Assembly (NCBI GenBank): GCA_038736825.1
Contig: JAVYME010000008.1
Span: 1-31,681 of the forward strand
Source: Candidatus Iainarchaeum sp.
Lineage (GTDB): Archaea; Iainarchaeota; Iainarchaeia; Iainarchaeales; DTGL01
DNA length: 31,681 bases
Reading direction: 5' to 3'
Part shown: one piece after another, positions 15,586 to 31,681 of the stretch
Layout of the letters: each line of letters starts with the position of its first letter
Position numbering within the stretch: position 1 is the stretch's first letter
The notes under the pieces: generated by a model
Told to the model about the DNA's origin: nothing
The model's input: only the letters and a program-made list of their open reading frames with translations
Databases searched by the model: none
Program-made: the position numbers and the translations under genes

Positions 15586-18500
15586 ATGGTTTCTGTGAAG
15601 AAAGTTCTTAAATTTTCCATATTCATTCTTTTGTTCTTTTCTTTGTTTTATTCGCCAGCCTCTTCTTTTCGCTGTGATGCAGGTTCTCTTGAAACCACTT
15701 GCATTCTTTCCACTTTTCAAAACCTAGACAACAATTTTTCAGTTAGCGGAACTGGAAATCTGGTGATAGAATCCACCGCTTCCCTGAACACAAATGGAAA
15801 CGACTTAGGCATTTCCATGACTGGTTTTATTGAAAACCGTGGAGACATAAACACTAACCTTAGTCCGGCAACAGTGCGTTTTAAAACAGGAACAGCAGAG
15901 CCCTTTACAGATATTGGCCTTGTCGGTGACTGGAACTTTAATGAAGGCTCTGGAAATATTGCTAGAGATGCGATTAATGGAAACAATGGAACTGTTTATG
16001 GTGCCACTTGGCAGCCTTCAAGTGTTCAATTGCCAAAAAAGAGCGGTTCTGCTATTGCATTTGACGGAAATGATGACTATATTGATATTGGTGATATAAG
16101 CTTACTTGAAAATTTTTCTTATTTTTCTCTTTCTGCATGGATTAAACCGAGCAAGCTCTCAACCCCACCTTTTTTTAGTGGTTTTTCTTATTTTCGTCCA
16201 GTTACTGTTTCGAATTCTGGTTCTGCTTTAACCGATTATCAAGTTTTAGTCACCATTAATACTTCTATTTTGGTTTCTGCTGGAAAAATGCGCTCTGATT
16301 GTGCAGACATGCGGTTCTCTGACAGCGACAATGCAACCTCTTTAAGTTATTGGCTTGAATCAGGTTGCAATTCCACTACAACCAAGGTTTGGGTGAAAAT
16401 CCCCTCAATTCCAAATGGAAACAAAACAATTTATTTTTATTATGGGAATTCTTCTGCAAGTTCTGGAAGCACCACTTCCACTTTGGAAGCATACCAAAAC
16501 ACTGGCGATCTGGATTCAGAAATAAAATCAGTTTATTACCCAAACAATAATTATGTTGGTGATCTGCATTGGACAATAGGTGGCTGGGGAGACTACTATT
16601 ATGCGCTTTTCAAAGTACCCAGTTCTCTAAGACCTTCATCAGTCACTTCTGCCAACATTAATACAGCCACTTTATATTCTTACGGGTTTTACCAGAATGA
16701 AAACAGTGGCAGCACTCTAACGCAAACAGTGAATCTTGCATATATCACTTCAAGTTGGAATCCCTCAACTGTCACTTGGAACACAAGACCATCACAGGGA
16801 AGTACTTTTTTCACTGGTTCAACAGTGCAATTAGGGCCTTCACAGTCAACTAGTGCAACTTGGCATACTTTTAATATTACAACTTGGGCAAAAGATTCCT
16901 CTGTTGGCTGGTTTGGAACAAACCATGGAATTTATGTGATTCCCAGCACTAATAGTGGGATGTATTATCGTGGCTATTCTGCTAATCATAATCCGCCATG
17001 GTATATAGTTATCACTTATGATACAAGCAAAAACATTATTATTGAGAAAGATTCGAATGGCTTTATTTGGAGAACCAGAAAGTATTCTTCTCCTGAACCA
17101 AGTGCTTCCATTGGAAGCGAGCAGACTACTGGAAGCGCTCAATTTGTTGTTGGAAAAGAAGGAGTTTACAAAATTGAAGCTTATGGCAACAATATAAGGT
17201 TTTTTACTGGCAATAATTGGTCTGGCGCAATTCTCACCTCTCAATCAACGCTTTCCACTAATGCATGGCAGCATATTGTGGCAACGTATGATGGTTCAAC
17301 CAAAAAATTGTATATTAATGGGGTTTTGGATTCAAATACTGTTTCTGTTTCTGGCAGTGTGGGGCAAAATTCCAGAAAATTCAGCATTGGTGCTTCTGAC
17401 ACTGGCACTGCTTGGGCAAATTATTTTAATGGCTTTATAGATGAAGTGCGCGTTTATAACCGTGCTTTGTCAATTGAAGAAGTGCAACAATTGTATAATT
17501 CTTCAAAGCCAGAGGATGCAGTATTGCACTTAAAGTTTGATGAAGGCACAGGGCTTATTGCAAGTGACTCTTCAGCTTATGGCAACCATGGACTGCTTTA
17601 CAATTTTCACGCTCCACGCTCTACGGGCTGGACAAGCGATGCAATTGACGGAAATGCTCTTGAATTTGACGGAGTTGATGATTATGTAAAAGTGTCCGAT
17701 AGCAACACTTTGAAAATTACAAGTAGTTTGACTGTTGAAGGTTGGTTTAAGCCAGATTCTTCAAAAAAAGCGCCAATAAAAGTTCTCTCAATATATCCTT
17801 GTAGTACTTGCAGAATAAATGACATTCTTGGCTCGTATGGTTTAGGATTGTTTTCTGTTGAATGTATGAGCTATACTGCCTTTAATTCAGGTGCGTATAA
17901 TTTGGCAAAGTATGATGTTGTAATTTTGGATGGGGCTGATTGTTGGGCTTCGGCAGCAAATTTGGATTTAGAGGAAAGAAATGCAATTGTTAGTTTTGTT
18001 TTGAATGGGGGCGCCTTTATTTCTACTCATGATACCATTTGCCAGAAAAGCTGGCCAGAATTCCATCAAATTTTAGGGTATGACTGTAATGGGGGTTATA
18101 CTGGGTGTTATCCGACTGGTTGTGCAGCTTTGACTCCAGTGAATAGGACTAGAGTGGGAGCAATAACAACTTACCCTTATGTTTTGCCTGCAAGCATATC
18201 GGTGCAAAACACCCACACTACAAATGGGCAAATTCCGAAAACTGCTATTAGATGGTATGAATTGACAGCTGATGATTCTGGTTATGATGTTTATTTGGCA
18301 ACCAACACTTATGGGGCTGGCTATGGTAGAACGGCAATGCTTCAATGGGGTCACGGAGCATATAATTGTGATTGCACGGGTGGTTCTCTGCCTGGCGCTG
18401 ATGAATCAAAATTGATAGTAAACACCTTGTATTGGGCAGCAATGCCAAGGACTATTTTCAAGCAAAACTCTTATGGTTTATATGTTGATTCAAATTTTGC

Positions 18501-21500
18501 AGTGGGATATATTAATGAAACTGTGGTTTCAAGCAATCTTTCTTCAACAACTTGGGCACATGTTGCTTTAACATATGATCTTTCAAATGTAAGCCTCTAT
18601 GTCAATGGTGTGCTTAAGTCAACCCAAACCCTAACAGACACCATTGCCCTCAATGCAAATGATTTGTTTGTTGGAAAAAATTTTTTTGGCAAAATTGATG
18701 ATGTCCGCGTTTACAATCGCGCTCTTTCACAGGCTGAAATTGCTGCAGATATGCGTGAAAATGCTTTGGGCAAAAAGATTTTGCACTTGAAAATGGATGA
18801 AGAAAATGCTTCAATAAGGGATTATTCTTCTTTCAATAATCATGGCTGGCTTGGTGGCAGCACCAGCCTATTAATGCGTTTTGATGAAAACTCTGGCTAT
18901 ATTGCACAAGACAGTTCCGGTTATGGAAATACTGGCACAATTTATGGCAATACAGTGCTTTTAATGAATTTTGACGACAACACTTCCAAAACAATTAAAG
19001 ACCTTTCTAGCAGAAACAACAATGGCATTTTGTATGGTTCAACTCGATTATTAATGAACATGGATGACAGTCGCAGTCAAACCATTGTTGATTCAACAGG
19101 TTATGCAAACAATGGAAACTATCGTGGCTCGAGTTTGTTTTTTGATGGACTAAGTGCATATGTGCAAAGGAGCAGCCCGTCTAATATTCCAACTGGCAAC
19201 ACGGTAACCGTGACTGTTTGGATCAAACCAGATTCCCTTCAAGGTGATGCCTCTTATAATGGTATTGTTTCATGGGGTCCTCGAACTGGCACTGGGACAA
19301 GTTTTTTGTTCAGTTTGCAGAACAATGGGCGTCTTAGTATGGGGACCTGGAACAACAATTTTGTTCCTTCTTCTGGTCCTACTGTTAGATGGAATGAATG
19401 GAATTTTGTGGCAGTTGTTTTGGACGGACAGAGCGTGACACTTTATGTTAATGGAGAATCTGTTAATGGAACTCTTTCCTCGACACCAGCCATTCAATCA
19501 GGGGTTTTGAATGTTGGTTCAACTGATAACCCTGGACGCTACTTTAAGGGAAACATTGATGAGTTAAGGATTTATAGTCGTGCTCTCAGTTCGACAGAAA
19601 TACTAGAGCAAATGCGTGGCATTTTTTCTAATAATGCTGGCTTGAGGGTTTTATGGTATTTCAAGGAAGGTTCTGGCACTAGTGTGGCAGATGACTCTGG
19701 AAATGGCAACACAGGAACTCTAATGGGCGGCGCTAGTTGGCAGGATGTAATTGTTAACTGGAACACTCCACACTGCTATGCGGATAGTGCAACATATAGT
19801 TCCGGTTCTTATAATTGTCCTTCTGGAACAACCACCTTTAAAGTCTATCATTATGTTGCAACAGAAGGTTGTTGTGATAGCTACTATATTTACTCGGGTG
19901 GAGGAGTGAAGTATTCTGGGGCGGGTTGCCTAACTGGTGGAACTTGTTCTTCTGGTAATTGCAATGCTCCATCTGGGGCGTGGTCTGCAGAGTATTCATA
20001 TAGTGGACCAGTCAGTTTTACTTTAACAACTGACAGCAGTATTGTCTATTATGGGGTAAGAGTTGATAAAATTTCTTGTTATGTTCCTGGTTCGCTTCCA
20101 ACTTGGAGCACTGAAAGCCCCGCAATATGGCAGTCAAGCAGTGCACTTGCAAATGAAGGCGGTTCGGCTTTAGCGTTTAATGGAATTGATACATATGTTG
20201 AAGTTCCACATACTGCTAGTTTATATTTGAACAATCAAGTCAGTGTCGAGGCATGGGTTAATCTTAAATCTTTCAACAGTTCTGATTGGGGGTCAATGAT
20301 TGTCAGCAAGTATGGCGGAAACTGGAAAGGTTACAATTTATATCTTGCCAATACCACTGGCAAACCAGCATTTAGTATTGCAACAACCACGCCATCCAAT
20401 GCAATTTATTCAGTAATCAGCGATGATGCGATAAGCCTTAATTCTTGGACTCACATTGTTGGGGTTTGGGATGGTTCAACAGCGCATGTTTATGTAAATG
20501 GCGTTTTGAAAAAATCAGTTTCTGCCCCTTATATTACACAGGACGCAACGCCGTTATACATTGGAAAAAATGCATGGTCAGGATATGGGTTTTTAAATGG
20601 CTTAATTGATGAAGTTGCGATTCATGGTCGCGCTTTAACTCAAGCCGAGATCTTGGATCACTATACTTCTAGGAAAGCAAAGTTTTCTGACTGGAATGCT
20701 GGAATGTCAGGCACAGCATTGCAGTTTGACGGTAATAGTTATGTTTACATCGGGGATAGTTCTAGCCTTGATATTACTAACAAGATTTCAATTGAAGCCT
20801 GGGTTTATGCTAACACTTATGGCAAGAGCAAGAGCACTATTCCTGGAAATTTGGAGTCAGCTAATATTTTGAGCAAGATGGACACTCCCACGAGTTGCAC
20901 TGGGCCCTTTTGGTGGGAGTACAGAAACAATGGTATTTTGGATGTCTATTTTAGAAACACCTCGGGCAGTATAATTTATGTTCGCACTAACTTGCCAATC
21001 CGCCAATGGTATCACATAGTTGCAACTTATGATTCCAGTACTGGAACAGCCAAGGTTTACTTGAATGGTGTTGATACAAATACTGTTGTTAGTTCTGGTT
21101 TTGGGCAATTAAGAAATGGCATGGAATTATTGCTTGGCACTGGAAAGGGCATCAATTATGGAAACTCTTTTGATGGCAAACTTGACGAGTTAGTAATTTA
21201 TTCCAAGGTTCTCTCTCAAGCAGAAATTTTTGAACACTATATTGCAGGCAAAGCAAGGCATGCAGACTGGGTTTCAGGAAAGAATGGTTCGGCATTGCAG
21301 TTTCCGGGTTTGGGGGAATATGTTGAGGTTGCCACAAGCACCTCTATAGCGCCTACTGAGCTGTCTTTATCTGCTTGGATTAATGTTACACAAACAGCTA
21401 GTTATAATATTTTATTTGCAAAAGATTATACTTCACATTCTTATCCTTACTATTCATACCAATTAAGGACTACCCCAAGTGGAATTGAATGGTGTTGTAT

Positions 21501-23064
21501 AAACCTTTGTCTCACTTACAGTGGAGGTGCGCTTCCAACTAATTCTTGGCAGCACATTGCTGCCACTTGCAAGAGCGGAGAGCAAAAAATTTACTTGAAT
21601 GGGGTTGCAGTTGCCAGCAGTTCAACAACTGGCTCTATTGTTTATTATAATACAAATCTTTTAATTGGAAAAGCAAGAAATTTTGATGGAAGATTTTTTG
21701 GAATAATGGATGAAGTTGCCATTTACTCTAAAATTCTTTCCGCCAACGAAATATCCAAATTATATGTTGAGGGAAGAGCCCGGCATTCTGATTTTAATTC
21801 AGGAATTTCTGGAAAAGCAATACAGTTTGATGGAGTGGATGATATTGTTTCAATTCCAGATTCTGATTCTTTGGACATGAAAAATGATAGTTTTTCCATT
21901 TTTGCTTGGGTGAAAAGAAACAAGTTTAATGATGAGCAGCAAATTGTAGCCAAATATGGCAGCATAGCATATAATGGTTATAGGTTTGAGTTTGGAGCGG
22001 ATAACAAGCTTGGCTTTTTTGCTGGCGATGGCGGAAGTTGGGACATTTACTTACAGTCTTCTTCAACTATTACTGATTCAGGCTGGCATCACGTTGGAGT
22101 GGTAATCAACAGAAGTAGCGTAGGCCAATTATATATTGATGGCAAGCCAAACGGCAATGCTGCAAGTGCCACTTCAATTGGAAACATAAACAATGCAGAT
22201 CCTGTTTACATCGGTTCTGCGCAATGGTCAACCAAGCGCTTTGGTGGCATCATTGATGATGTTCGCATTTACAATTATGCCAAATCTGCTCAAGAAATTG
22301 AAGCGGATTATAATTTTGGGGTTAGAGAACATAGTGCTCATATTCAAATCACTGACCAGAACTTGGTTGCTTTATGGCATTTGGATGGAAATGCTATGCA
22401 AACAACAGCCTTGGACTCAAAAGGAAGCAATCACGGAACGCTCGCCAACTTTGACTTTTGGCATGCTGATTCTGGCTGGGTTGAAGGCAAATTTGGAAGA
22501 GCTTTGAGATTTGATGGAAATAATGATTATATTGCAGTTAATGACTCTAGTTTGTGGGATTTTAGGGGAAAAAATGTTTCAATTGAGGTTTGGTTTAAAG
22601 CAAGTTCAGTGCAAATTGATCCATGGCCAACTCTTTTGGATCATTTTGTTGGTGGCACTCCTGGCGCGGGATGGCGCCTTGGTTTTGACTATAATAAAAC
22701 CAAAATAGTGTTTGCGCACCGACATGATGGCACTGGTGACCAAATTTACCTTGTTTCAACAAAAGATTATGCTGATAATCAATGGCATCACGTGGTTGTG
22801 GTTTTGGATAATGGAATTGCAAAACTTTATTTGGATGGTTTACTGGACAAAACAGACTCTTATGCCAATTTGAATGACCATGATGCGCCATTATATGTGG
22901 GAGGGCAAGGTATTAGCTATTCCTTTAATGGTAGCATTGATGAGATTGCAATTTATCACAGGGCATTATCTGAAACCGAAATAAAGGACCATTATTACTC
23001 TTTTGTGGACAAGGGAATGATTTATTCAGCTGGAACTATAAAGGGCTATGGTGAAAACCAATGA
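15586..23064 (+). CDS. Giant secreted surface protein (2,492 aa): signal peptide, 8 LamG/concanavalin-A-like lectin modules, with nested DUF2341 + DNRLRE/CBM96-like, GATase1/ThuA-like and Cys-rich CUB-like inserts
   Basis: Signal peptide MVSVKKVLKFSIFILLFFSLFYSPASS. A LamG closing block, [ILM]D[ED][VLI]x[IV][YH]xxxL[ST]xxE[IV], recurs eight times, ending at nt 17496, 18753, 19614, 20664, 21240, 21765, 22311 and 22995. The recurring lead block is F[DN]EG.G....D.S..GN.G.L, followed by AL.FDG.DDY. The DUF2341 block is FSYFRPVTVSN...VWVKIPSIP.GNKTIYFYYGN. Many N-x-S/T sequons are present. Confidence 0.85.
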   Translation: MVSVKKVLKFSIFILLFFSLFYSPASSFRCDAGSLETTCILSTFQNLDNNFSVSGTGNLVIESTASLNTNGNDLGISMTGFIENRGDINTNLSPATVRFKTGTAEPFTDIGLVGDWNFNEGSGNIARDAINGNNGTVYGATWQPSSVQLPKKSGSAIAFDGNDDYIDIGDISLLENFSYFSLSAWIKPSKLSTPPFFSGFSYFRPVTVSNSGSALTDYQVLVTINTSILVSAGKMRSDCADMRFSDSDNATSLSYWLESGCNSTTTKVWVKIPSIPNGNKTIYFYYGNSSASSGSTTSTLEAYQNTGDLDSEIKSVYYPNNNYVGDLHWTIGGWGDYYYALFKVPSSLRPSSVTSANINTATLYSYGFYQNENSGSTLTQTVNLAYITSSWNPSTVTWNTRPSQGSTFFTGSTVQLGPSQSTSATWHTFNITTWAKDSSVGWFGTNHGIYVIPSTNSGMYYRGYSANHNPPWYIVITYDTSKNIIIEKDSNGFIWRTRKYSSPEPSASIGSEQTTGSAQFVVGKEGVYKIEAYGNNIRFFTGNNWSGAILTSQSTLSTNAWQHIVATYDGSTKKLYINGVLDSNTVSVSGSVGQNSRKFSIGASDTGTAWANYFNGFIDEVRVYNRALSIEEVQQLYNSSKPEDAVLHLKFDEGTGLIASDSSAYGNHGLLYNFHAPRSTGWTSDAIDGNALEFDGVDDYVKVSDSNTLKITSSLTVEGWFKPDSSKKAPIKVLSIYPCSTCRINDILGSYGLGLFSVECMSYTAFNSGAYNLAKYDVVILDGADCWASAANLDLEERNAIVSFVLNGGAFISTHDTICQKSWPEFHQILGYDCNGGYTGCYPTGCAALTPVNRTRVGAITTYPYVLPASISVQNTHTTNGQIPKTAIRWYELTADDSGYDVYLATNTYGAGYGRTAMLQWGHGAYNCDCTGGSLPGADESKLIVNTLYWAAMPRTIFKQNSYGLYVDSNFAVGYINETVVSSNLSSTTWAHVALTYDLSNVSLYVNGVLKSTQTLTDTIALNANDLFVGKNFFGKIDDVRVYNRALSQAEIAADMRENALGKKILHLKMDEENASIRDYSSFNNHGWLGGSTSLLMRFDENSGYIAQDSSGYGNTGTIYGNTVLLMNFDDNTSKTIKDLSSRNNNGILYGSTRLLMNMDDSRSQTIVDSTGYANNGNYRGSSLFFDGLSAYVQRSSPSNIPTGNTVTVTVWIKPDSLQGDASYNGIVSWGPRTGTGTSFLFSLQNNGRLSMGTWNNNFVPSSGPTVRWNEWNFVAVVLDGQSVTLYVNGESVNGTLSSTPAIQSGVLNVGSTDNPGRYFKGNIDELRIYSRALSSTEILEQMRGIFSNNAGLRVLWYFKEGSGTSVADDSGNGNTGTLMGGASWQDVIVNWNTPHCYADSATYSSGSYNCPSGTTTFKVYHYVATEGCCDSYYIYSGGGVKYSGAGCLTGGTCSSGNCNAPSGAWSAEYSYSGPVSFTLTTDSSIVYYGVRVDKISCYVPGSLPTWSTESPAIWQSSSALANEGGSALAFNGIDTYVEVPHTASLYLNNQVSVEAWVNLKSFNSSDWGSMIVSKYGGNWKGYNLYLANTTGKPAFSIATTTPSNAIYSVISDDAISLNSWTHIVGVWDGSTAHVYVNGVLKKSVSAPYITQDATPLYIGKNAWSGYGFLNGLIDEVAIHGRALTQAEILDHYTSRKAKFSDWNAGMSGTALQFDGNSYVYIGDSSSLDITNKISIEAWVYANTYGKSKSTIPGNLESANILSKMDTPTSCTGPFWWEYRNNGILDVYFRNTSGSIIYVRTNLPIRQWYHIVATYDSSTGTAKVYLNGVDTNTVVSSGFGQLRNGMELLLGTGKGINYGNSFDGKLDELVIYSKVLSQAEIFEHYIAGKARHADWVSGKNGSALQFPGLGEYVEVATSTSIAPTELSLSAWINVTQTASYNILFAKDYTSHSYPYYSYQLRTTPSGIEWCCINLCLTYSGGALPTNSWQHIAATCKSGEQKIYLNGVAVASSSTTGSIVYYNTNLLIGKARNFDGRFFGIMDEVAIYSKILSANEISKLYVEGRARHSDFNSGISGKAIQFDGVDDIVSIPDSDSLDMKNDSFSIFAWVKRNKFNDEQQIVAKYGSIAYNGYRFEFGADNKLGFFAGDGGSWDIYLQSSSTITDSGWHHVGVVINRSSVGQLYIDGKPNGNAASATSIGNINNADPVYIGSAQWSTKRFGGIIDDVRIYNYAKSAQEIEADYNFGVREHSAHIQITDQNLVALWHLDGNAMQTTALDSKGSNHGTLANFDFWHADSGWVEGKFGRALRFDGNNDYIAVNDSSLWDFRGKNVSIEVWFKASSVQIDPWPTLLDHFVGGTPGAGWRLGFDYNKTKIVFAHRHDGTGDQIYLVSTKDYADNQWHHVVVVLDNGIAKLYLDGLLDKTDSYANLNDHDAPLYVGGQGISYSFNGSIDEIAIYHRALSETEIKDHYYSFVDKGMIYSAGTIKGYGENQ
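18856..19125 (+). repeat. Three in-frame tandem 90-nt (30-aa) units inside the giant gene
   Basis: Unit 1 is GSTSLLMRFDENSGYIAQDSSGYGNTGTIY. Unit 2 is GNTVLLMNFDDNTSKTIKDLSSRNNNGILY. Unit 3 is GSTRLLMNMDDSRSQTIVDSTGYANNGNYR. Each is exactly 30 codons (18856-18945, 18946-19035, 19036-19125). They are diverged copies of the LamG lead motif. Confidence 0.8.
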
Positions 23065-24269
23065 AGGGAATGAGAAAAAAGCACAAGTGGTTTTTATTTT
23101 TGCTTTTCATAGTTTCCGTTTTTGCCCAGGCTTTTGCCACTTTTGGTTCAAATGCAACAATTTTTAACCAGGGAAGCTCTCCAGTGACTGTACAAATTTC
23201 TTGCACTTCAGGTCAGGGCTATACTTGTTTTGCCATCAAATATAGCGTTGATGGCAATTCTTGGCAAAACTATTATGGTGCTGATTTGAATGTTGTTTTG
23301 ACTGAGGATGGCAATCACATAATTAGGTATTATGCAATAGGCCGCGCTTGTTATAGTGAAAAATGCACGCATGTTTTTGAGCCAATGAAATATGTGTGGG
23401 CATATGTAGTGACTAGAGTATCTCCAACAATTATACTTAATTCCCCTATTGGGGGGGAATTGTGGCGCGGCATTCATGCTATTGATTTCAATGTAAGACA
23501 ACCCCAAAACAATGAATTACACCTTGCAATTTATTATTCTTCTGACAGAAACAAATTCCAAAATGTTATAGTAAGCGATTTGAATTTGAACAATTATCCT
23601 AATATTGCAGCCTTAAATTGTGATGGTTCTAACTGGTCAAACAGCACCAGGTGCACTTATGACTGGAATACTGCAATCATTCCAGACGGAAACTGGTACA
23701 TTGACTTGAACATATGGGAGAGAAAATATTTTTTGAGTGATTCAAATTCAACCTTTTCGCATTTAATGATAGACAACAATCCGCCTTTTACAAACCTTGT
23801 TTCTCCAACTGGTTGGCAAACTCAAGATTTTAATGTTGTGCTTTCTTGTTCTGATGCCAGTGGTTCTGGGTGTGCTTCTACAAGTTATGGGTTGAATTTT
23901 GGGCCTTGGGAAACGTACGGTCAAGGTGTGTCAGAATGGTGGAATTCTTCTTGGCAGTACAGGCGCAAAATATTTTTTGACAATTCCAATCAACCGCTAA
24001 AAACGAATCATTCTGTTTTGCTCAGGCTTAATTCTGGCAATTTTGATTTTTCAAAAGTGCAATCTGCTGGTCAAGATTTAAGGTTTAGGGATGTCAATCA
24101 ACAAATTGCTATTGAATTCTTTTTCGACTATTTTAATGCAGCATTGCAGAGTGCAATTGTTTGGATTAAAGTGCCACAAATTGATGCAAATTCTAAATCG
24201 GACTATGTTTGGATGTATTATGGCAATCCTTCAGCAACTGATGCTCAGTCAACCAATTGGTTTGGCTAG
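23061..24269 (+). CDS. Secreted protein with Ig-like/OmpL47-type beta domains and a C-terminal DUF2341 module
   Basis: The start overlaps the stop of the giant gene (ATGA). Signal peptide MKGMRKKHKWFLFLLFIVSVFAQAFA. Chitobiase-C/Ig-like block ISCTSGQGYTCFAIKYSVDGNSWQNY. OmpL47-like block PPFTNLVSPTGWQTQDFNVVLSCSDASGSGCASTSY. DUF2341 block WQYRRKIFFDNSNQ...IVWIKVPQIDANSKSDYVWMYYGN. Confidence 0.7.
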   Translation: MKGMRKKHKWFLFLLFIVSVFAQAFATFGSNATIFNQGSSPVTVQISCTSGQGYTCFAIKYSVDGNSWQNYYGADLNVVLTEDGNHIIRYYAIGRACYSEKCTHVFEPMKYVWAYVVTRVSPTIILNSPIGGELWRGIHAIDFNVRQPQNNELHLAIYYSSDRNKFQNVIVSDLNLNNYPNIAALNCDGSNWSNSTRCTYDWNTAIIPDGNWYIDLNIWERKYFLSDSNSTFSHLMIDNNPPFTNLVSPTGWQTQDFNVVLSCSDASGSGCASTSYGLNFGPWETYGQGVSEWWNSSWQYRRKIFFDNSNQPLKTNHSVLLRLNSGNFDFSKVQSAGQDLRFRDVNQQIAIEFFFDYFNAALQSAIVWIKVPQIDANSKSDYVWMYYGNPSATDAQSTNWFG

Positions 24270-24694
24270 TGTTTTAACTTTATTTCTTTTGAGGGGTTGT
24301 TCATTTCGCTTTCAAAGCATTTATCACAACACCATTTTGCTTTCAGGTTTTTTGAGGAATCGATTTTTTTGCATTCGGTTAACTGTACTGAGGCTGCTTT
24401 TTGTGGTTCCAGTGGTTCGTTGATGGTGGCAATGTCTGTTCCTTGAATTGTTGGAATGGTTATTTGAACTGATTGGATTGTTTTTTCTCCACCATTAAAG
24501 AATGGAACAGCCAGTCTTTCATTAATGCATTCGCTTTCCCCGTATTCCAGCAAGCAGCCATTTCTCATGGCTTCACTTAGGTTTTCGGCAGGCGCATTAG
24601 CAAGATTTGTTATGTAGAAAAAAATCCCATATGCTGCCATAAAGAGAATGAATCCCGCCGGCAACAGCCACTTGCTTTCAATTTTTTTTTCCAT
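24266..24694 (-). CDS. Small N-terminally anchored or exported protein with 6 Cys, unknown function
   Basis: MEKKIESKWLLPAGFILFMAAYGIFFYI hydrophobic anchor, then a soluble domain with Cys pairs (GC..EC, EC, WCCDKC). Its stop overlaps the stop of the convergent 23061-24269 gene within CTAG. It is divergent from the radical-SAM operon. Confidence 0.55.
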   Translation of the reverse strand: MEKKIESKWLLPAGFILFMAAYGIFFYITNLANAPAENLSEAMRNGCLLEYGESECINERLAVPFFNGGEKTIQSVQITIPTIQGTDIATINEPLEPQKAASVQLTECKKIDSSKNLKAKWCCDKCFESEMNNPSKEIKLKH

Positions 24695-24748: not shown

Positions 24749-25684
24749 ATGCCAGAGCGCTTGGACTTAAAACTTGGCTTTTCCTGCAATAACAATTGTC
24801 TTTCCTGTCCCCAAGCACATAGGCGACACTTGGGGGATTTAACAACTGCACAAGCCAAAAAATTCCTGCTCGCAGGCTTAAGAGATGGTGCCAAAGAGCT
24901 TGTGCTTACAGGTGGCGAACCAACCATTAGAGCTGATTTAATTGAACTTGTTGAATTTGCAAGAAAAAAAGGCTTTGAAAGAGTGCAATTGCAAACCAAT
25001 GCAAGAATGCTTTCCTATAAATCGCTTGCATTAAAACTTGTTGAAGCAGGAATAACAGAATTTTGTGTTGGCTTGCATTCCGACAAAAAAGAAACACAAG
25101 AATTTCTCACGCGCTCTCCAGGTTCTTTCACTCAAACAATTCAAGGAATAAAAAATTTGGTTGAACTAAACCAATACGTTACAATTAACTCTGTTATTCA
25201 CAAGCTTGACTTTGAAAGGCTTCCTTTGCGAGCAAAAATGGCTGTAGAGTTGGGCGTGCAACAATTCCAGCTTGCCTTCATTCACTGTGCTGGCAATGCC
25301 TTCGAAAACATGGATTTGTTGTGCCCAAAAAAATCCAAAGTAATGCTTTTCGTTCACAAAGCCCTTGAAATTGCCGCCAATGCCGGCTTAACAGCAATGG
25401 TTGAAGCCTACCCATTTTGCTTTATGCAAGGCTTTGAAAAACACTGCTCTGAACTATACATGCCCTCAGCTGAAATAAGAGACGCAGAAGGCCTAGTCAA
25501 AGACTTTGACAGAGTGCGCAAAGAAAGCGGAAAATTAAAAGGTCCAAACTGTTCAAAATGCAAGTTTTTTTTGGTGTGTGAAGGTCCATGGAAAGAATAC
25601 CCGCAAAAGTTTGGCTGGACTGAATTTAAACCAGTGAAAGGCAAAAAGATTGCTAGTGCCAGAGAATTTTTGGGTGAAAAATAA
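24749..25684 (+). CDS. Radical SAM enzyme, ~300-aa class with a C-terminal Cys-cluster (twitch/partial-SPASM-like), paralogue A
   Basis: CX3CX2C motif SCNNNCLSC near the N-terminus, GGEPTIRADLIELVEFARKKGF, and QTNARML. C-terminal Cys are at PFCFMQGFEKHC and GPNCSKCKFFLVCEG. Confidence 0.85.
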   Translation: MPERLDLKLGFSCNNNCLSCPQAHRRHLGDLTTAQAKKFLLAGLRDGAKELVLTGGEPTIRADLIELVEFARKKGFERVQLQTNARMLSYKSLALKLVEAGITEFCVGLHSDKKETQEFLTRSPGSFTQTIQGIKNLVELNQYVTINSVIHKLDFERLPLRAKMAVELGVQQFQLAFIHCAGNAFENMDLLCPKKSKVMLFVHKALEIAANAGLTAMVEAYPFCFMQGFEKHCSELYMPSAEIRDAEGLVKDFDRVRKESGKLKGPNCSKCKFFLVCEGPWKEYPQKFGWTEFKPVKGKKIASAREFLGEK

Positions 25685-26287
25685 ATGGCAAAATTTAAAA
25701 AAAAGCATTGGCTTGCTTTTATGGTTTTATTTTCATTAATTTTTATTATTTTCTTGGTTTTGTTTTTAAAAGAACTGTTGTTCATTGATTCAAATCCAGT
25801 TATTAAAAAAGAAGCCGCGATTATGCCAATAAAAAGCGAATCAATGGAAAAAGATTTTTTGGGAGTTAGCGTTTTCAATGCTTTATCAAAAAACAATATT
25901 AAAAACTGCGGGGATTTTAACGAATGCAGGCGTCTTTTCCTTTTGGCTGAAAAAGAATGCACTGGCAACATTAACGAGAAAATCTTTTGCTTGGCAGTAA
26001 TTGACGAAAATTTGAATTATTGCAAGTGGATTGATTTGAAATGGTATGCTATTACTTGCACTGCTTTTTTGGAAAAAAACATTGGCAAGTGCATGGAAAT
26101 AAGAGATGCCTTTGAGATAGCTCCTTGTATTAAGGACTTTGTTTTAAACAATGAGGACGCTAACTGTGGTGTGCTTTCAAGCGACTGGGAAAAAGCCTGT
26201 GAAGCCTTCAAAAACAAAAGCAGGGCAAAATGTGACATGATTGATAGTGGCACCATCAAGAAGGCATGCATTACATTTTTGGAATAA
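25685..26287 (+). CDS. Membrane-anchored or exported protein with 12 periodically spaced cysteines (candidate maturation substrate)
   Basis: The ATG immediately follows the stop of the preceding gene (TAAATG). The N-terminus is MAKFKKKHWLAFMVLFSLIFIIFLVLFL. Cys lie at residues 75, 81, 92, 102, 113, 125, 136, 148, 161, 172, 183 and 195. No catalytic motif recognised. Confidence 0.65.
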   Translation: MAKFKKKHWLAFMVLFSLIFIIFLVLFLKELLFIDSNPVIKKEAAIMPIKSESMEKDFLGVSVFNALSKNNIKNCGDFNECRRLFLLAEKECTGNINEKIFCLAVIDENLNYCKWIDLKWYAITCTAFLEKNIGKCMEIRDAFEIAPCIKDFVLNNEDANCGVLSSDWEKACEAFKNKSRAKCDMIDSGTIKKACITFLE

Positions 26288-26293
26288 GGGTGT

Positions 26294-27190
26294 TTGCATT
26301 TGCAAGAGCACTTAAATTTTTACACTTTAGTTTTGGGGCATCACTGCAACAATAATTGCATTTTTTGCACTCGTCCGAGTGATCCTTCTATAAAAAGTGT
26401 TTGGGGTTTTGTTGAAGAAAAATCCTTTGCCACGGTTTTTCGAGAAATTGCGAGTGCAAGGAAAAGGTTTGACTCAATAGTGCTTTCTGGCGGCGAACCA
26501 ACAACAAGAAGGGATTTTTTCAAAATCCTGCAAGCATGCTGTTCCCTTGGTTTTGAAAGAATTTCAGTGCAATCTAATGCAAGAAAATTTTCTTCAATGG
26601 GTTTTGCAGAAAAAACCTTGTCAATTTTGGGTTCTCGAAGTGACTTTTATATTTCATTTCACGCTAAAAGGGAAAAATTGTTCAACAAGCTAAGGGGCAC
26701 AAACTCATTTAAAGAGTCCTTGAGTGGAATAAAAAACCTGTTATTGCTGAAAGCACCAGTGCGCATCAACATTGTTGTTATGAAGCCAAATTATCGCGAT
26801 TTGCCAGAAACAGTGCGCTTTTTGGACTCTTTGGGGGTAAAGGCAGTGGAGTTTTCTTTTGTGCACCCCAATGGCAGAGCATTTGCCAACAGGGAAACAG
26901 TGGTTCCCCAAATAGAAAAAGTAATTCCCTTTGTTGAAAGAGCAGGCGAGTTTTTAGAGAAAAAACAAGTATTTTTTTCCTTGAACGATTTTCCATTATG
27001 TTCGCTGAATAAATGCAGGAAAAATGCTTCTGAACTTTTTTTGAATGAAAAACTGGCATTTCAGAGCCCAAAAATAAGTTTTAAGGCAAAAGAGTGCCAA
27101 AAATGCCTTTATTTTGACAAATGTCCGGGCATTTGGGCTAATTATCTAAAAATTTTCAAATTTCATTTTTCTCCAATAACCAAACTTTGA
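26294..27190 (+). CDS. Radical SAM enzyme, ~300-aa class, paralogue B (most divergent)
   Basis: HHCNNNCIFC (CX3CX2C), SGGEPTTRRDF and QSNARKF. C-terminal Cys are at PLCSLNKC and ECQKCLYFDKCPG. There is no ATG near the 5' end, so a TTG start at 26294 is assumed and the exact start is uncertain. Confidence 0.8.
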   Translation: MHLQEHLNFYTLVLGHHCNNNCIFCTRPSDPSIKSVWGFVEEKSFATVFREIASARKRFDSIVLSGGEPTTRRDFFKILQACCSLGFERISVQSNARKFSSMGFAEKTLSILGSRSDFYISFHAKREKLFNKLRGTNSFKESLSGIKNLLLLKAPVRINIVVMKPNYRDLPETVRFLDSLGVKAVEFSFVHPNGRAFANRETVVPQIEKVIPFVERAGEFLEKKQVFFSLNDFPLCSLNKCRKNASELFLNEKLAFQSPKISFKAKECQKCLYFDKCPGIWANYLKIFKFHFSPITKL

Positions 27191-27241: not shown

Positions 27242-28717
27242 GTGTTTTTTTTGGCTAAAAGCTTTTTTGGCTCAACTGCAACTGAAGAGCAATATGTTGC
27301 AAATTTTTATCACGTAAAAAAATTTGGCGAAGATGCATTCCTTGTAACCACTGAGCATGGCTCTTGGGCTCTTCTTTCAAAGAAAGAATTCGAATTGCTA
27401 AGGCTTGGCAGAGTGCAAGCAAACCCAGCCTTGTTTGAAGAACTAAAAAAACAAGGCATTATTTTGACAACTGAAAATATTGAAAATGTCATATCTGATT
27501 ACAGGCAAAAAAAGTCTTTTTTGTTTAGACCGCCATCGCTTCACATAATCACGCCCACCCTGCGGTGCAACCTCAAATGCATTTACTGCCATTCCAGGGT
27601 GTGCGCTGACCAAGAAAAAGGCTATGACATGGACAAAGAAACAGCAAAAAAAACAGTGGATTTCATAATGCAAACTCCCTTGAATGAATTGAAAATAGAG
27701 TTTCAAGGTGGGGATTTTTTGTTGAATTTTGAAATAACAGAATTCATTATAGATTATGCTTTGGAAAAAGCCAAAGAAAAAGGAAAAAAAGTCAATTTTG
27801 CAATGGTTTCAAACCTTACTTTAATGAATGAAAAAATCCTTGAAAGCTTGAGCAAGAGAAAGATTATGGGTTTGGCAACATCGCTTGACGGTCCCAAAAA
27901 AGTGCACGACCTCAACCGAAGGCATTTGGGAGGAAAAGGCTCTTATGAAGATACTGTTTACTGGATCAAGAGGATTAAAAGCGAGTGGAAGTACAAGTTC
28001 AACCTTAACGCCCTTTGCACAGTCACAAGGCATTCTTTTGGTCATGAAAAAGAGATAGTGGACGAATACATTAGCTTGGGCTTTGCGGGTGTTTGGATGC
28101 GGCCTCTTAACAATATCGGTTTTGCCGCAGATGCTTGGCAGAAAATTGGTTATTCTCCTAGAGAGTTTTTTTCCTTTTGGAAAAAATCCTTTGAATACAT
28201 TCTTGAAAAAAACCGTGCTGGGGAAAACCTGATAGACTATTTTGCCCTGATTTTCTTGAAAAAAATACTTCAAAAAGAAGACCCGCACATGGTGGACATA
28301 ATGTCGCCTTGTGGTGCTGGAATAAGCCAGTTATTGTATAAGTACAATGGTGATATTCACACTTGCGATGAAGGCAAAATTTTTTCTGAATTCAAGCTTG
28401 GCAATGTAAGAGAGTCCAAATACGAGGACATTTTCAGAAACGAAACCCTTATTCCAATGATTGACATTTCCAGCAAAAAAAACTATCTTTGCGATAACTG
28501 TGCTTGGGACCCATATTGTGGGGTTTGCCCGATTTATTCTTATGCAGCACAGGGTTCAATTGTTTCTATTCTCCCGCTTGATGACCGATGCAAGGTTTAT
28601 GGAAAAATCATAGAAGAAATTTTTAGAAAAATCCTTTTTTCTGAAGAGGATCGCCAGGTAATGCTTGGCTGGCTTGAAAGCGAAAGGCTTTTCAAAAAGG
28701 AGCCGGAAAGTGCTTGA
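27242..28717 (+). CDS. Radical SAM/SPASM-domain maturase with a ~100-aa N-terminal extension (anSME/HxsB-like architecture)
   Basis: LRCNLKCIYCH (CX3CX2C) is preceded by FYHVKKFGEDAFLVTTEHGSWALLSKKEFELLRLG...LFEELKKQGIIL...SLHIITPT. The SPASM Cys pattern is PCGAGISQLLYKYNGDIHTC ... CDNCAWDPYCGVC ... DDRC. A GTG start is assumed. Confidence 0.85.
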   Translation: MFFLAKSFFGSTATEEQYVANFYHVKKFGEDAFLVTTEHGSWALLSKKEFELLRLGRVQANPALFEELKKQGIILTTENIENVISDYRQKKSFLFRPPSLHIITPTLRCNLKCIYCHSRVCADQEKGYDMDKETAKKTVDFIMQTPLNELKIEFQGGDFLLNFEITEFIIDYALEKAKEKGKKVNFAMVSNLTLMNEKILESLSKRKIMGLATSLDGPKKVHDLNRRHLGGKGSYEDTVYWIKRIKSEWKYKFNLNALCTVTRHSFGHEKEIVDEYISLGFAGVWMRPLNNIGFAADAWQKIGYSPREFFSFWKKSFEYILEKNRAGENLIDYFALIFLKKILQKEDPHMVDIMSPCGAGISQLLYKYNGDIHTCDEGKIFSEFKLGNVRESKYEDIFRNETLIPMIDISSKKNYLCDNCAWDPYCGVCPIYSYAAQGSIVSILPLDDRCKVYGKIIEEIFRKILFSEEDRQVMLGWLESERLFKKEPESA

Positions 28718-28719
28718 AA

Positions 28720-29766
28720 ATGCTCGCTTTTTTCCTTTTTCCTGCTTTCCTGATTGGCTTGATTGCATCAATAGAGGACTTCAAGCAGGGCATTATAAGA
28801 AATCTTTATGTTTTAACCCTTTTGATTTTGGGAATCACATTCCAGTTTTTGTCAGGGGCTGATTTTTTTATTCTAGCTCCAGTTCTGGCTTCCGCTTTTG
28901 TGGTTTCCTTTGCTTTTTGGCTTTCTGGATTATGGCCTGCAGGTGATGCAAAGCTTTTCTGGGCATATTTTTTCTTTTTTCCTCAAACCTTTTTTTTGGA
29001 AAAAGAGCTGGTTTTGGCTTTCCTTTCCAACATTTTTGTTCCAATTTTTTTCTTTATGTTTTTTGTAGTATTATGCAAGAGCCGCCTTGGAGTGATCAAA
29101 GAAGCCTTAAAGTATTCTCTTGACCCTTACCGGCTTTTCATGCTTGCAGTAATGCTTTTGGGTTTTGTCTGGATTGTCATGCTGCCCTTAGCGTTTTTCA
29201 GGATTGAAACTGGCTTGCTTGGCACGCTTGCAGTATTGCTTTTAGCCTTCGAGTTGCTTAAACGGTTTTGGACATTTAAAACCGAGACCTTTTTCATTCT
29301 CTGCGCTTTTGCCAGAGTCTTGCTTTTTCCAGCAGAAATTTATTCAATTCCATTTGCCATAAATTTTTTGAAAACACTGGCGGTTTTTGTCTTTTTCAGG
29401 TTTTTCATTTTGTATTTGGCTTTCAAGCTTTACGCTTCAAAAGTTCTCATAAAAAACCTCAAGGAGGGGATGATTCCAGCCGAAGGAATCAAAAAACAAG
29501 GCAAAAAATTTGTAAAAGAGTCTTTTTTGAATTCTGGCTTTATTTCATTCGTTTCAAGTGAAAAAAAGCGCTTTGAGCATAGCAAAAACTGCCTTTCAAA
29601 AAAAGACATTGCAAAACTGCAACGCCTTGAAAAGCGTGGCTTGCTGGAATTCGATTCGCTTTTGGTGCACCAAACACAACCTTTCGGGTTCTTCATTTTA
29701 TTAGGTTTCCTGTTAACTCTGCTTTTTCAGGGCAAGAATTTTTTGCTTGCAAACCCGCTTTTTTAA
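28720..29766 (+). CDS. Second A24-family aspartyl membrane peptidase paralogue, embedded in the radical-SAM operon
   Basis: Asp1 context is ASIEDFKQGIIRN and Asp2 context is LWPAGDAKLFWAY, a GxGD variant. The C-terminal architecture parallels the 1589-2413 protein (LKEGMIPAEGI ... LLVHQTQPFGFFILLGFLL versus LEEDEIIAKEFL ... PVYRSLPPFAPFLLFGVIV). The ATG at 28720 lies 2 nt after the upstream stop. The ORF-track TTG at 28714 is the alternative start. Confidence 0.7.
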   Translation: MLAFFLFPAFLIGLIASIEDFKQGIIRNLYVLTLLILGITFQFLSGADFFILAPVLASAFVVSFAFWLSGLWPAGDAKLFWAYFFFFPQTFFLEKELVLAFLSNIFVPIFFFMFFVVLCKSRLGVIKEALKYSLDPYRLFMLAVMLLGFVWIVMLPLAFFRIETGLLGTLAVLLLAFELLKRFWTFKTETFFILCAFARVLLFPAEIYSIPFAINFLKTLAVFVFFRFFILYLAFKLYASKVLIKNLKEGMIPAEGIKKQGKKFVKESFLNSGFISFVSSEKKRFEHSKNCLSKKDIAKLQRLEKRGLLEFDSLLVHQTQPFGFFILLGFLLTLLFQGKNFLLANPLF

Positions 29767-29792: not shown

Positions 29793-30713
29793 ATGATCAA
29801 AGTATTGAAGACCGGGATTTTGCTGGGCTATCGTTGCAACAACAACTGCCGGTTTTGCTATTGTGCTGACAAAAAAGGCGTTATTGCCCCCATGAAAACA
29901 GAAGAGGTGAAAAAACAGATTTTGGCTGGAAGAAACCGCGGCTCCAATTTTGTGGATTTCTTGGGAGGCGAACCCACGCTGAGAGCAGATTTACCAGAAC
30001 TAGTTGAATTTGCAAAAAGAGTTGGCTTTGAACAAATTGGCATTACAACCAATGGCAGGGTTCTTTCCAAAAAAGATTACACCAAACAACTTCTTGATTC
30101 TGGCTTAAACCACGTGATTTTTTCACTTCACGGTCATAATGCCGAGCTTCATGATTATTTAACGCGGTCACCAAATTCTTTTGTGCAAGCAACAAAAGGC
30201 ATCAAAAACGTGAAGGAATTGAACCCAAAAGCCTATGTTTGCATTAACACTGTTTTGTTGAAGCAAAACCTAAAAGTTTTGCCGGAAATCGTAAGGCTTG
30301 CCTTTGAACTCAAAGCCAATGGCATGGAATTGATTTTTCCCCATCCAAGAGGCAATGCTTGGCATAATTTTGAAGAAATGGTGCCAAACCTTGAAGAATT
30401 AATCGGGCCATTGCATGAAGCCCTGCATTTAGGGCATTCGCTTGGCATCAAGCACTGTTTTGCAAGATATGTGCCTTTTTGCTATATGTACGGCGACCTG
30501 GCATTCATAAGCGAATTTTTTTCCAAGGATTTTTTTGCAGAGCACCATATTGCTCCAGAATACCAAGACCTAGAAGTTGCAAAAAACCGTGCCGCTTATG
30601 GGCGAGTGAAAGGACCACAGTGCTCTGCATGCAAATACTTCAAGGAATGCGAAGGCATATTCAAAGAATACGCGCTCAAAAGGGGCTTTTCAGAGCTAGT
30701 GCCTGTGCCCTAA
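29793..30713 (+). CDS. Radical SAM enzyme, ~300-aa class, paralogue C
   Basis: YRCNNNCRFC, GGEPTLRADLPELVEFAKRVGF, TTNGRVL and YLTRSPNSFVQATKGIKNV (compare FLTRSPGSFTQTIQGIKNL in paralogue A). C-terminal Cys are at VPFCYMYG and GPQCSACKYFKECEG. Confidence 0.85.
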   Translation: MIKVLKTGILLGYRCNNNCRFCYCADKKGVIAPMKTEEVKKQILAGRNRGSNFVDFLGGEPTLRADLPELVEFAKRVGFEQIGITTNGRVLSKKDYTKQLLDSGLNHVIFSLHGHNAELHDYLTRSPNSFVQATKGIKNVKELNPKAYVCINTVLLKQNLKVLPEIVRLAFELKANGMELIFPHPRGNAWHNFEEMVPNLEELIGPLHEALHLGHSLGIKHCFARYVPFCYMYGDLAFISEFFSKDFFAEHHIAPEYQDLEVAKNRAAYGRVKGPQCSACKYFKECEGIFKEYALKRGFSELVPVP

Positions 30714-31681
30714 TTCTGATTTCTTGAAGTTTATTGTAGAGCACTCGCCTATTTCAAGAAAAACTGCTTTTTTTACTTCGTACTTTTCTGCTTCCAAGGC
30801 AAGTTCTTTTCGAGCTTTTTTTATTGCGTCTTTTTTGGAAAAAGCTGAAATATGGCCGAGCACTTCATAGTGTTCTTGGCTTTTATAAACCGCCAAAAAA
30901 TCTTTAATCCTGCTTTTGATTTTTTCCTTTTTTTCTGGCAGTCTTTCAAACAAGCGCCAGCATTGTGGGTCTGGCGCAAAAGGTGTTCCAAAGTATCCAA
31001 AGGAAAGGCATTTTGCGCCACCCTTACACTCTTGAAAGAAAAAGCATTTTTTGCAAATTTCTGAAGCATTTTGATGGCTGCGGAGCTTTTTTAGTTCCAT
31101 TGAATTGTTGAATATTTCCAAAAGGCTTTTTTTCAATACATTGCCTGCAAGAATTGGCAGTTTCCTGCAAGGATAAATGTTGCCGTTTGGAAGCACTGTT
31201 AGGGAGCCAAAACCAGCAGAGCAACCAACTGCCATATAATGTGGGTTTTGTGAAAGAATGCCATCCTCGCAACCCAAAAAGATTGCCATTTGCCCTTTGC
31301 CTCTTTTTTGTGATTCAGTGAAAACAAATTCGTAGAGCTTTTTTGTTTCTAAGGGATCAAGCATTTTTTCTTTGATTTGCAGGCCTCTGCCTGCAGGCAC
31401 AAACCTTCTCACACCCAATGCTTTTGCTCCAATGGAATCACAAAATTTAACCATTTCTGGAACATCACGCCAATTAGCCCTATTCACAGTCATTGAAACA
31501 ATGAATGGAATTCCTTCTTTTGCCAGAAAATCCATCCCCTGAACCGCTTTGCTGAAAGAGCCTTCTCCCCTCAAAAAATCATTGGCTTTTTGCATTCCAT
31601 CAAGGCTCACTTGAACATAATCCGGCTTTATTTTTTTCAGCTGTTCAGCCTCTTTTTTTCCAATCAATGTTCCGTTTGTTG
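30696..31681 (-). CDS. Radical SAM/SPASM-domain protein, 5'-truncated by the window edge, with a ~70-aa helical C-terminal tail
   Basis: The frame stays open to the window end (..TNGTLIGKKEAEQLKKIKPDYVQVSLDG, a typical rSAM core block), so the CX3CX2C region lies outside the window. The SPASM pattern is GCSAGFGSLTVLPNGNIYPC ... CKKCFFFQECKGGAKC ... DPQC. Its 3' end overlaps the convergent rSAM-C gene by 18 nt. Confidence 0.8.
   Translation of the reverse strand, partial: TNGTLIGKKEAEQLKKIKPDYVQVSLDGMQKANDFLRGEGSFSKAVQGMDFLAKEGIPFIVSMTVNRANWRDVPEMVKFCDSIGAKALGVRRFVPAGRGLQIKEKMLDPLETKKLYEFVFTESQKRGKGQMAIFLGCEDGILSQNPHYMAVGCSAGFGSLTVLPNGNIYPCRKLPILAGNVLKKSLLEIFNNSMELKKLRSHQNASEICKKCFFFQECKGGAKCLSFGYFGTPFAPDPQCWRLFERLPEKKEKIKSRIKDFLAVYKSQEHYEVLGHISAFSKKDAIKKARKELALEAEKYEVKKAVFLEIGECSTINFKKSELGHRH

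Follow-up and report, generated by a model that had tools for sequence, protein, structure and literature searches.

The 31,681-bp contig JAVYME010000008.1 of Candidatus Iainarchaeum sp. (Iainarchaeota, DPANN), analyzed here in its entirety and referred to as the window, encodes a 200-amino-acid (aa) protein that carries a rare, previously undescribed and conserved repeat domain with invariant, periodically spaced cysteines. We term this domain the Cys-ladder. Its gene lies within an operon of radical S-adenosylmethionine (rSAM) enzymes that is an archaeal cassette of the HXS (His-Xaa-Ser) type, and the ladder protein is a dedicated, lineage-specific component of this cassette, linked most tightly to an HxsC4-like rSAM enzyme, rSAM-A. 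The features of the ladder gene are listed below; structural confidence is given as the predicted local distance difference test (pLDDT) score of AlphaFold2.

25685-26287, + strand: Cys-ladder protein gene, 200 aa plus stop, from the open reading frame (ORF) and its translation.
25700-25780, + strand: N-terminal membrane helix, residues 6-32, following the basic MAKFKKKH (signal anchor); predicted as helix, pLDDT about 95.
25781-25855, + strand: linker, residues 33-57, low confidence (pLDDT 48-63) and poorly conserved, with length and composition varying in alignments.
25856-26284, + strand: Cys-ladder domain, residues 58-200, predicted alpha-solenoid from the domain-only AlphaFold2 model and the repeat detected by hhalign.
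25907-26269, + strand: span of the 12 Cys codons, from the start of the first to the end of the last.

The original prediction, made from the DNA sequence alone, had described a strictly periodic array of 12 cysteines arranged in repeats and encoded between two rSAM genes, and each of these points was upheld. Translation places the cysteines at residues 75, 81, 92, 102, 113, 125, 136, 148, 161, 172, 183 and 195, encoded within nucleotides 25907-26269. Beyond the first pair, the ten consecutive index differences are all 10-13, so that 9-12 residues lie in between. When 12 Cys were placed at random in the 131-residue region 1,000,000 times, ten such gaps in a row never arose; the longest run was 8, and it arose once. 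Profile-profile comparison with hhalign, applied to segments of the family alignment, matched residues 84-130 to residues 153-200 (90% probability, E=1.4e-6) and residues 121-160 to residues 157-200 (95%). The repeat unit is about 23 aa long and contains two Cys, with a consensus of roughly C-x-A-(f/l)-x3-(d/n)-x3-C-x2-I-x-d-x3-(k/r)-x2-C; the ladder comprises about five such units. The start codon of the ladder, at 25685, follows immediately on the stop codon of the upstream gene, rSAM-A (last base 25684), while the downstream gene, rSAM-B, starts at 26294, 6 nt past the ladder stop. The protein is annotated as "hypothetical" in the NCBI record of this metagenome-assembled genome. The NCBI gene call is 177 aa long and starts at residue 24, leaving out 25685-25753 and with it most of the membrane helix. 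Because homologues align from residues 1-13 onward and the stop-start junction abuts, we favor position 25685 as the start, which gives 200 aa.

When 1.84 billion cluster representatives were searched exhaustively, 23 ladder homologues were identified, the most distant at about 25% identity; word-indexed searches, first with the protein sequence and later with a profile, recovered the ladder protein and three members that were known already, but nothing else. In the family alignment, every one of the 12 positions is occupied by Cys in 20-23 of the 23 sequences. Positions E98, F101, I116, W120 and A127 are also nearly invariant, and Y121 is conserved among the closer relatives. Two architectures were found. 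The first, of about 200 aa, runs from a basic N-terminus through a single hydrophobic helix and a linker that varies to the ladder; the second, of 620-720 aa, opens with a signal or membrane helix and ends with the ladder, with a large region between the two. The ectodomains of the short forms contain 8, 10, 12 or 14 Cys, except for one weak, distant match with 7, and the 10-Cys variants lack precisely the final two Cys. Neither Pfam, NCBIfam nor PADLOC has a family that fits the ladder, even with E-values up to 10 allowed across 16 members, and a profile search against the Protein Data Bank (PDB) sequences gave only noise. A metagenome scan with ladder patterns found no locus, and a genome scan found two ladder loci only, both in Candidatus Iainarchaeum (DPANN). 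We found no description of this domain in the literature.

AlphaFold2, supplied with the family alignment, predicts a very confident all-helical domain from residue 58 onward. Modelled alone, the domain has a mean pLDDT of 97.3 and a predicted template modelling score (pTM) of 0.87. The confident prediction is of an all-alpha solenoid in which each repeat contributes one long and one short helix, long helices of 11-14 aa alternating with short ones of 4-6 aa. The long helices (96-107, 119-129, 142-155, 166-177 and 189-199) carry a Cys near the middle, at 102, 125, 148, 172 and 195, respectively; short helices carry Cys113, Cys136 and Cys183, and Cys161 sits at a short, three-residue helical turn. 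Successive ladder Cys thus fall on successive helices of the model. An N-terminal anchor followed by a linker of about 45 residues had been proposed from the sequence. The anchor stands, but in the model the linker shrinks to about 25 residues plus an N-terminal capping helix of the domain. The basic N-terminus and the following hydrophobic stretch are conserved in homologues. The protein is probably membrane-anchored with the N-terminus inside and the ladder domain outside the cytoplasm, because its N-terminus is basic (the positive-inside rule) and because the long forms resemble secreted proteins. A class III cleavage motif, of the type processed by A24 peptidases, was considered for the ladder N-terminus; by eye it is unsupported, with a basic residue directly before the hydrophobic stretch and without the usual G, A or S at position -1, and the HxsA-like proteins described below suit the motif better.

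The predicted fold did not match a known Cys-repeat family. Foldseek searches of the PDB with the full-length and domain-only models, and of BFVD, gave no match below E=0.8; the best PDB matches had E-values of 1.5-1.7 and TM-scores of at most 0.38, and were to generic helical repeats (designed helical repeats, TPR, HEAT and 14-3-3). Sel1/Hcp proteins share secreted alpha-helical repeats with a Cys pair per repeat. Their repeats, however, are about 36 aa long and those of the ladder 23 aa, there was no Pfam match to Sel1 or TPR in 16 members at E<=10, and no Foldseek match to Hcp/Sel1 structures was obtained. Twin CX9C (CHCH) proteins also have helical Cys about 10 residues apart, but in them both Cys of a CX9C lie on one helix, in a disulfide-stapled arrangement. 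We rejected this assignment: the ladder Cys are on successive helices, and a COX6B match at E=5 is noise.

The cassette was identified by profile searches against Pfam and NCBIfam, for which the NCBIfam cut-offs are 370 bits for HxsB (TIGR03978), 267.9 for HxsC (TIGR03977), 50 for HxsD (TIGR03976), 500 for HxsC4 and 55 for HxsA4. Its genes, apart from that of the ladder, are as follows.

24749-25684, + strand: rSAM-A, HxsC4/HxsC-like, 311 aa; Radical_SAM 70 bits, HxsC4 139 bits (cut-off 500), HxsC 102 bits.
26294-27190, + strand: rSAM-B, HxsC-like, 298 aa; HxsC (TIGR03977) 113 bits, covering positions 25-290 of the 292 in the model.
27242-28717, + strand: HxsB, an rSAM/SPASM maturase, 491 aa; TIGR03978 424.7 bits, with Radical_SAM and SPASM domains.
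28714-29766, + strand: A24-type (prepilin/preflagellin-like) aspartyl peptidase paralogue, 350 aa, archaeal in its C-terminal domain; Peptidase_A24 25.1 bits (cut-off 26.5) and Arc_PepC.
29793-30713, + strand: rSAM-D, HxsC4-like, 306 aa; HxsC4 160 bits (cut-off 500), Radical_SAM 90 bits.
30696-31681, - strand: rSAM/SPASM protein, 5'-truncated at the contig end; SPASM 45.7 bits, rSAM domain matched only from model position 91.
24266-24694, - strand: 142-aa membrane-anchored protein with six Cys, divergent from rSAM-A; orthologues in the same position at loci L004, L005-8, L012 and L015.

HxsB matches its model over the full length and above cut-off (424.7 vs 370 bits, E=4e-127), and its next-best families are PapB, SCIFF and QhpD, which are Cys-directed thioether maturases. 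The top families of rSAM-A, rSAM-B and rSAM-D are HxsC4 and HxsC, with scores far below the cut-offs (for HxsC 101.6, 113.1 and 89.8 bits, and for HxsC4 139, 116 and 160 bits, respectively); orthologues of rSAM-D occur at L011, L012 and L016. The truncated rSAM gene has an open frame right up to the final base of the window. From PADLOC, in a 2023 release without HXS models, the rSAM proteins drew only viperin-like matches of a generic kind. The A24 peptidase retains both catalytic Asp motifs (IEDFK and WPAGDAKLF), which are conserved in 26 orthologues, and adjoins HxsB in 16 of 23 archaeal HxsB loci. It is a second, divergent copy, a canonical A24 peptidase being encoded elsewhere on the contig (1589-2413, + strand). 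The 142-aa protein carries a single membrane helix at its N-terminus, conserves six Cys (GC..YGES.C, C, KWCC..C) and matches no family; possibly it is a further secreted protein with Cys that belongs to this module. A distant copy is present in L016. Other genes on the contig, including those for an Hjc resolvase, SRP54 and an A24 peptidase, are archaeal. No ORF of the window matches an HxsD profile built from archaeal copies, the contig ending 3 kb past HxsB; a six-frame search of the window turned up no ORF with HxS repeats, and we found no HxsA-type leader in it.

Conservation of the neighborhood was examined at loci obtained by contig look-ups for eight family members, by the genome scan and by an HxsB-anchored metagenome scan (40 loci), all annotated with the window proteins and with profiles built here. 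An rSAM gene lies within 3 kb of the ladder at all 17 of the independent loci that had enough flanking sequence to judge (more than about 1 kb). The original prediction would have been refuted had homologues usually lacked rSAM neighbors, or had the ladder confidently matched a known Cys-repeat family such as Sel1/Hcp; neither was the case. The most constant of these neighbors is rSAM-A: an orthologue (51-76% identity) is directly upstream of the ladder, overlapping its start or lying within 1 nt of it, at ten independent loci (the window, L001, L004, L009, L012, L015, L016, L020, L045 and L055). At L005 the two genes are 2.7 kb apart. Elsewhere the ladder abuts HxsB (L013, L053 and L032), the A24 peptidase (L054) or another HxsC-like rSAM (L011 and L038). 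The long ladder forms occupy the same slot, for example at L055 and L016, where the order is rSAM-A, ladder, HxsB, A24 peptidase, HxsD and an HxsA-like gene. Among the 23 HxsB-anchored loci with adequate flank, 3 have both a ladder and an HxsC-like rSAM, 1 has the ladder only, 3 the rSAM only and 16 neither, a co-occurrence that is marginal and based on small numbers (Fisher p=0.04). The ladder is confined to a clade in which HxsB is at least 52% identical to that of the window, the exceptions being weak ladder-like matches at L032 and L038. At L001 (1706-9028), rSAM-A and the ladder are followed by GT2, an rSAM, PMT_2, a YcaO protein of 748 aa and one more rSAM-A paralogue, and no HxsB, HxsD or HxsA-like gene occurs within 7.5 kb. 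HxsB loci without a ladder adjoin giant proteins of 40-80 Cys with CDDxD-type motifs and non-periodic Cys spacing, at the following positions.

L026, 1-1386: giant Cys-rich protein.
L029, 9081-12083: giant Cys-rich protein.
L030, 1-1323 and 19647-21425: giant Cys-rich proteins.
L047, 19021-21425: giant Cys-rich protein.
L036, 4501-7539, - strand: giant Cys-rich protein.
L022, 1366-3750: giant Cys-rich protein.

Cys-rich secreted proteins thus seem to be a recurring neighbor of archaeal HxsB/A24 cassettes.

The position of the ladder gene between two rSAM genes had been taken as that of a precursor of a ribosomally synthesized and post-translationally modified peptide (RiPP). The sister loci do not support this. 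HxsD is present at 20 of the 23 archaeal HxsB loci, often as a tandem pair, and several copies reach or approach the TIGR03976 cut-off (54.5 bits at L012, 46.6 at L016 and 45.6 at L055). Tandem pairs of about 146 and 85 aa lie upstream of HxsB at L024 (9129-9749), L034 (9099-9746), L044 (9059-9745) and L021 (528-1262), and some of the long HxsD copies contain an inserted CxxC run resembling a zinc ribbon. HxsA3/A4-like genes, which encode the expected type of precursor, were found as follows.

L009, 13807-14172, - strand: HxsA3/A4-like gene.
L012, 11086-11463, - strand: HxsA3/A4-like gene.
L016, 13059-13331, + strand: HxsA3/A4-like gene.
L020, 11465-11872, + strand: HxsA3/A4-like gene.
L055, 8688-8923, + strand: HxsA3/A4-like gene.
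L050, 824-1189, + strand: HxsA3/A4-like gene.

These archaeal proteins share a leader (F-[LV]-x2-E-x-G-x-I-S-K-...), a hydrophobic stretch and a short conserved segment, followed by 5-15 His-Xaa-Ser (HxS) repeats, sometimes with a terminal Cys motif, or by a His/Cys-rich tail. HxS-repeat proteins are encoded at the ladder-bearing loci L009, L012, L016, L020 and L055; that of L020 scores above the HxsA4 cut-off (68.9 vs 55 bits), and the HxsA-like proteins of the other loci score below the cut-offs. At L012 the HxsA-like gene stands between a closer HxsC (187.9 bits), immediately upstream, and a short ladder-like gene downstream. At L009 and L012 the HxsD and HxsA-like genes lie just past the counterpart of the rSAM gene that is truncated in the window. 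The leader and hydrophobic segment resemble an archaeal class III signal peptide, which would make the HxsA-like proteins natural substrates of the A24 peptidase. The ladder protein does not match the HxsA3-type leader profile or any NCBIfam model, has no HxS repeats and contains a single His in 200 residues. Because the sister loci carry a separate HxsA3/A4-like precursor with its own leader, the ladder is not the canonical precursor of the cassette.

In the HXS system of Escherichia coli, HxsB, HxsC and HxsD mature the effector HxsA, which undergoes N-terminal processing and a change of +8 Da in the HxS repeat, and mature HxsA blocks phage DNA entry from the periplasm (Nat Commun 2026, PMC13128918). 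Pseudomonadota account for 99.7% of HXS systems (PMC13128918). The archaeal cassette resembles the bacterial HxsD-HxsB-HxsC-HxsA system in having an HxsB above cut-off and HxsC-like rSAMs, these scoring below theirs, with HxsD and HxS-repeat proteins in sister loci, and in that the ladder gene occupies the HxsA slot directly after an HxsC-like gene; the bacterial rSAMs, too, mature an N-terminally processed protein that acts outside the cytoplasm. It differs in its archaeal host, in having three to five rSAM paralogues rather than two and in its dedicated A24-type peptidase. The archaeal HxS-repeat proteins are HxsA3/A4-like and short; their leader resembles a class III signal, and they lack a peptidoglycan-binding domain. 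In addition, the ladder, which lacks HxS repeats, and the 142-aa six-Cys protein have no bacterial counterpart.

The original prediction offered two readings, a substrate of Cys-directed radical (thioether) chemistry and a disulfide-stapled ectodomain. We lean, tentatively, toward the second, with the ladder protein as a cross-linked, probably disulfide-stapled ectodomain partner of the matured HxS-repeat protein. The N-terminal signal anchor would insert the protein into the membrane, and the 12 Cys would cross-link neighboring helices, most simply as six disulfides, rigidifying a small solenoid on a stalk of 25-40 residues. Outside the membrane the ladder would act with the matured HxS-repeat protein, possibly holding or presenting it and so replacing the peptidoglycan-binding anchor of bacterial HxsA, which archaea cannot use. 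The long forms of 620-720 aa, with an N-terminal signal or membrane helix and a C-terminal ladder, fit the extracytoplasmic location.

Several points weigh against the ladder being such a disulfide-stapled partner. The HxsD and HxsA-like genes of this genome would lie outside the window, the contig ending 3 kb after HxsB, and their presence is extrapolated from sister loci. Even Cys counts fit pairing, but weakly; we down-weighted parity as a test for disulfides, since each repeat brings two Cys and repeat gain and loss account for most of the even numbers. The habitats of these organisms are largely anoxic, which makes extracellular disulfides less secure. Finally, the ladder is tied most closely to an enzyme, rSAM-A, the stop of whose gene abuts the ladder start, and the ladder stands in the HxsC-then-HxsA gene order of bacterial HXS; both are patterns expected of an enzyme-substrate pair.

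The ladder could itself be a protein-sized, multi-site substrate of the co-translated HxsC4-like rSAM, possibly acting with HxsB or other rSAM paralogues, a reading that we consider possible but somewhat unlikely. The Cys would be converted before or during export to radical-derived cross-links, for instance thioethers, or to other products, giving a redox-insensitive stapled solenoid, and the ladder would be a "cargo" in the HxsA position, analogous to QhpC or to bacterial HxsA. The junction with rSAM-A at ten independent loci is the strongest constant of the neighborhood, and the pairing persists at 28% ladder identity and in proteins of 680-720 aa with C-terminal ladders. It is also found at L001, where HxsB, HxsD and HxsA are absent within 7.5 kb, and the co-occurrence of ladders with HxsC-like rSAMs points the same way, although the test covers 23 loci and is marginal. 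In the bacterial system, with its order of HxsC then HxsA, the rSAMs modify a protein (PMC13128918). The families nearest to HxsB, apart from its own, are the thioether maturases PapB, SCIFF and QhpD. The archaeal HxsA-like proteins, moreover, share the layout of leader, hydrophobic segment and repeats, and a membrane helix is compatible with modification in the cytoplasm. However, sister loci already possess a canonical precursor, and the ladder lacks an HxsA-type leader. The predicted domain is compact and very confidently folded rather than a disordered core, no acceptor residue recurs at a constant distance from every Cys (the Asp/Asn that are conserved resemble helix caps), and exporting a heavily cross-linked domain of 145 residues would require an additional route. 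That the Cys are specifically made into thioether or other radical staples by the HxsC4-like rSAM, yielding a redox-proof surface solenoid in an anaerobic DPANN archaeon, we regard as unlikely.

Known substrates of rSAM maturases provide partial parallels. QhpC, the quinohemoprotein amine dehydrogenase gamma subunit, is a protein with several Cys that are cross-linked by the SPASM rSAM QhpD before export, through a few Cys-Asp/Glu thioethers and with no repeat periodicity. Like the ladder, it is a protein rather than a short peptide, and QhpD is among the next-best families of HxsB; QhpC and the ladder share no sequence similarity, and cross-linking of the ladder is a prediction. Precursors of sactipeptides, ranthipeptides and SCIFF are Cys-rich and lie beside rSAM/SPASM maturases, but they are leader-core peptides of 40-60 aa, whereas the ladder protein is 200 aa long (up to 720 in relatives), membrane-anchored and furnished with one Cys per approximately 11 residues. 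We also rejected a short leader-core RiPP precursor as a description of the ladder protein, which has a membrane helix and a 143-residue domain (pLDDT 97) and long forms of 620-720 aa.

Metal-ion or iron-sulfur cluster binding by the Cys array is improbable; it might involve, for instance, three four-Cys sites lining the solenoid core, perhaps together with the HxS repeats. The 12 invariant Cys, of which five are central in long helices and three are in short ones, would provide ligands, and the HxS-repeat proteins are His-rich, one of them weakly matching the zinc-uptake protein ZrgA. Yet the ladder contains no CxxC or CxxCxxC motif, its predicted location is extracytoplasmic, and it matches no metal-binding family in Pfam or NCBIfam; to our knowledge, no cluster-binding fold spaces its Cys one to a helix.

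Two further large genes immediately precede the cassette.

15586-23064, + strand: 2492-aa protein with at least eight LamG/ConA-like domains.
23061-24269, + strand: 402-aa DUF2341 protein.

Genes of the LamG/DUF2341 kind lie upstream at L005, L012 and L015 as well, so that an island of surface-protein genes seems to be conserved upstream of the cassette. Least probable of all is that the ladder is simply one more surface protein of this island, with its LamG giant, DUF2341 protein and glycosyltransferases (a glycosyltransferase and PMT_2 also lie near the ladder at L001 and L005), and has no functional tie to the rSAMs, since its slot after the HxsC4-like rSAM or beside HxsB or the A24 peptidase is kept where other genes differ, and across two domain architectures.

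We found no description of archaeal HXS systems in the literature. NCBIfam includes HxsA3, HxsA4, HxsC4 and HxsD-related models; curators have therefore seen variant HXS systems. The ladder, the six-Cys protein and the A24 peptidase are part of no described HXS system. A function for HXS, antiphage defense through an rSAM-matured effector, has been assigned only recently, and this locus and its relatives represent an archaeal, DPANN version with several HxsC-like rSAMs, a dedicated A24-type peptidase, short HxS-repeat proteins whose leaders resemble those of pilins, and the Cys-ladder ectodomain, for which no relative is known. Should the ladder be a substrate of an rSAM enzyme, radical cross-linking would extend from peptides to a whole repeat domain, which would suggest how anaerobes stabilize surface proteins without disulfides; it would represent a new class of rSAM-matured structural protein, in the first HXS-type system described in archaea. 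If it is instead a partner protein, it hints at how an HxS-repeat effector may be held on a cell without peptidoglycan. In either case the ladder domain, being small, well defined and modelled with confidence, lends itself to structural and mass-spectrometric work.

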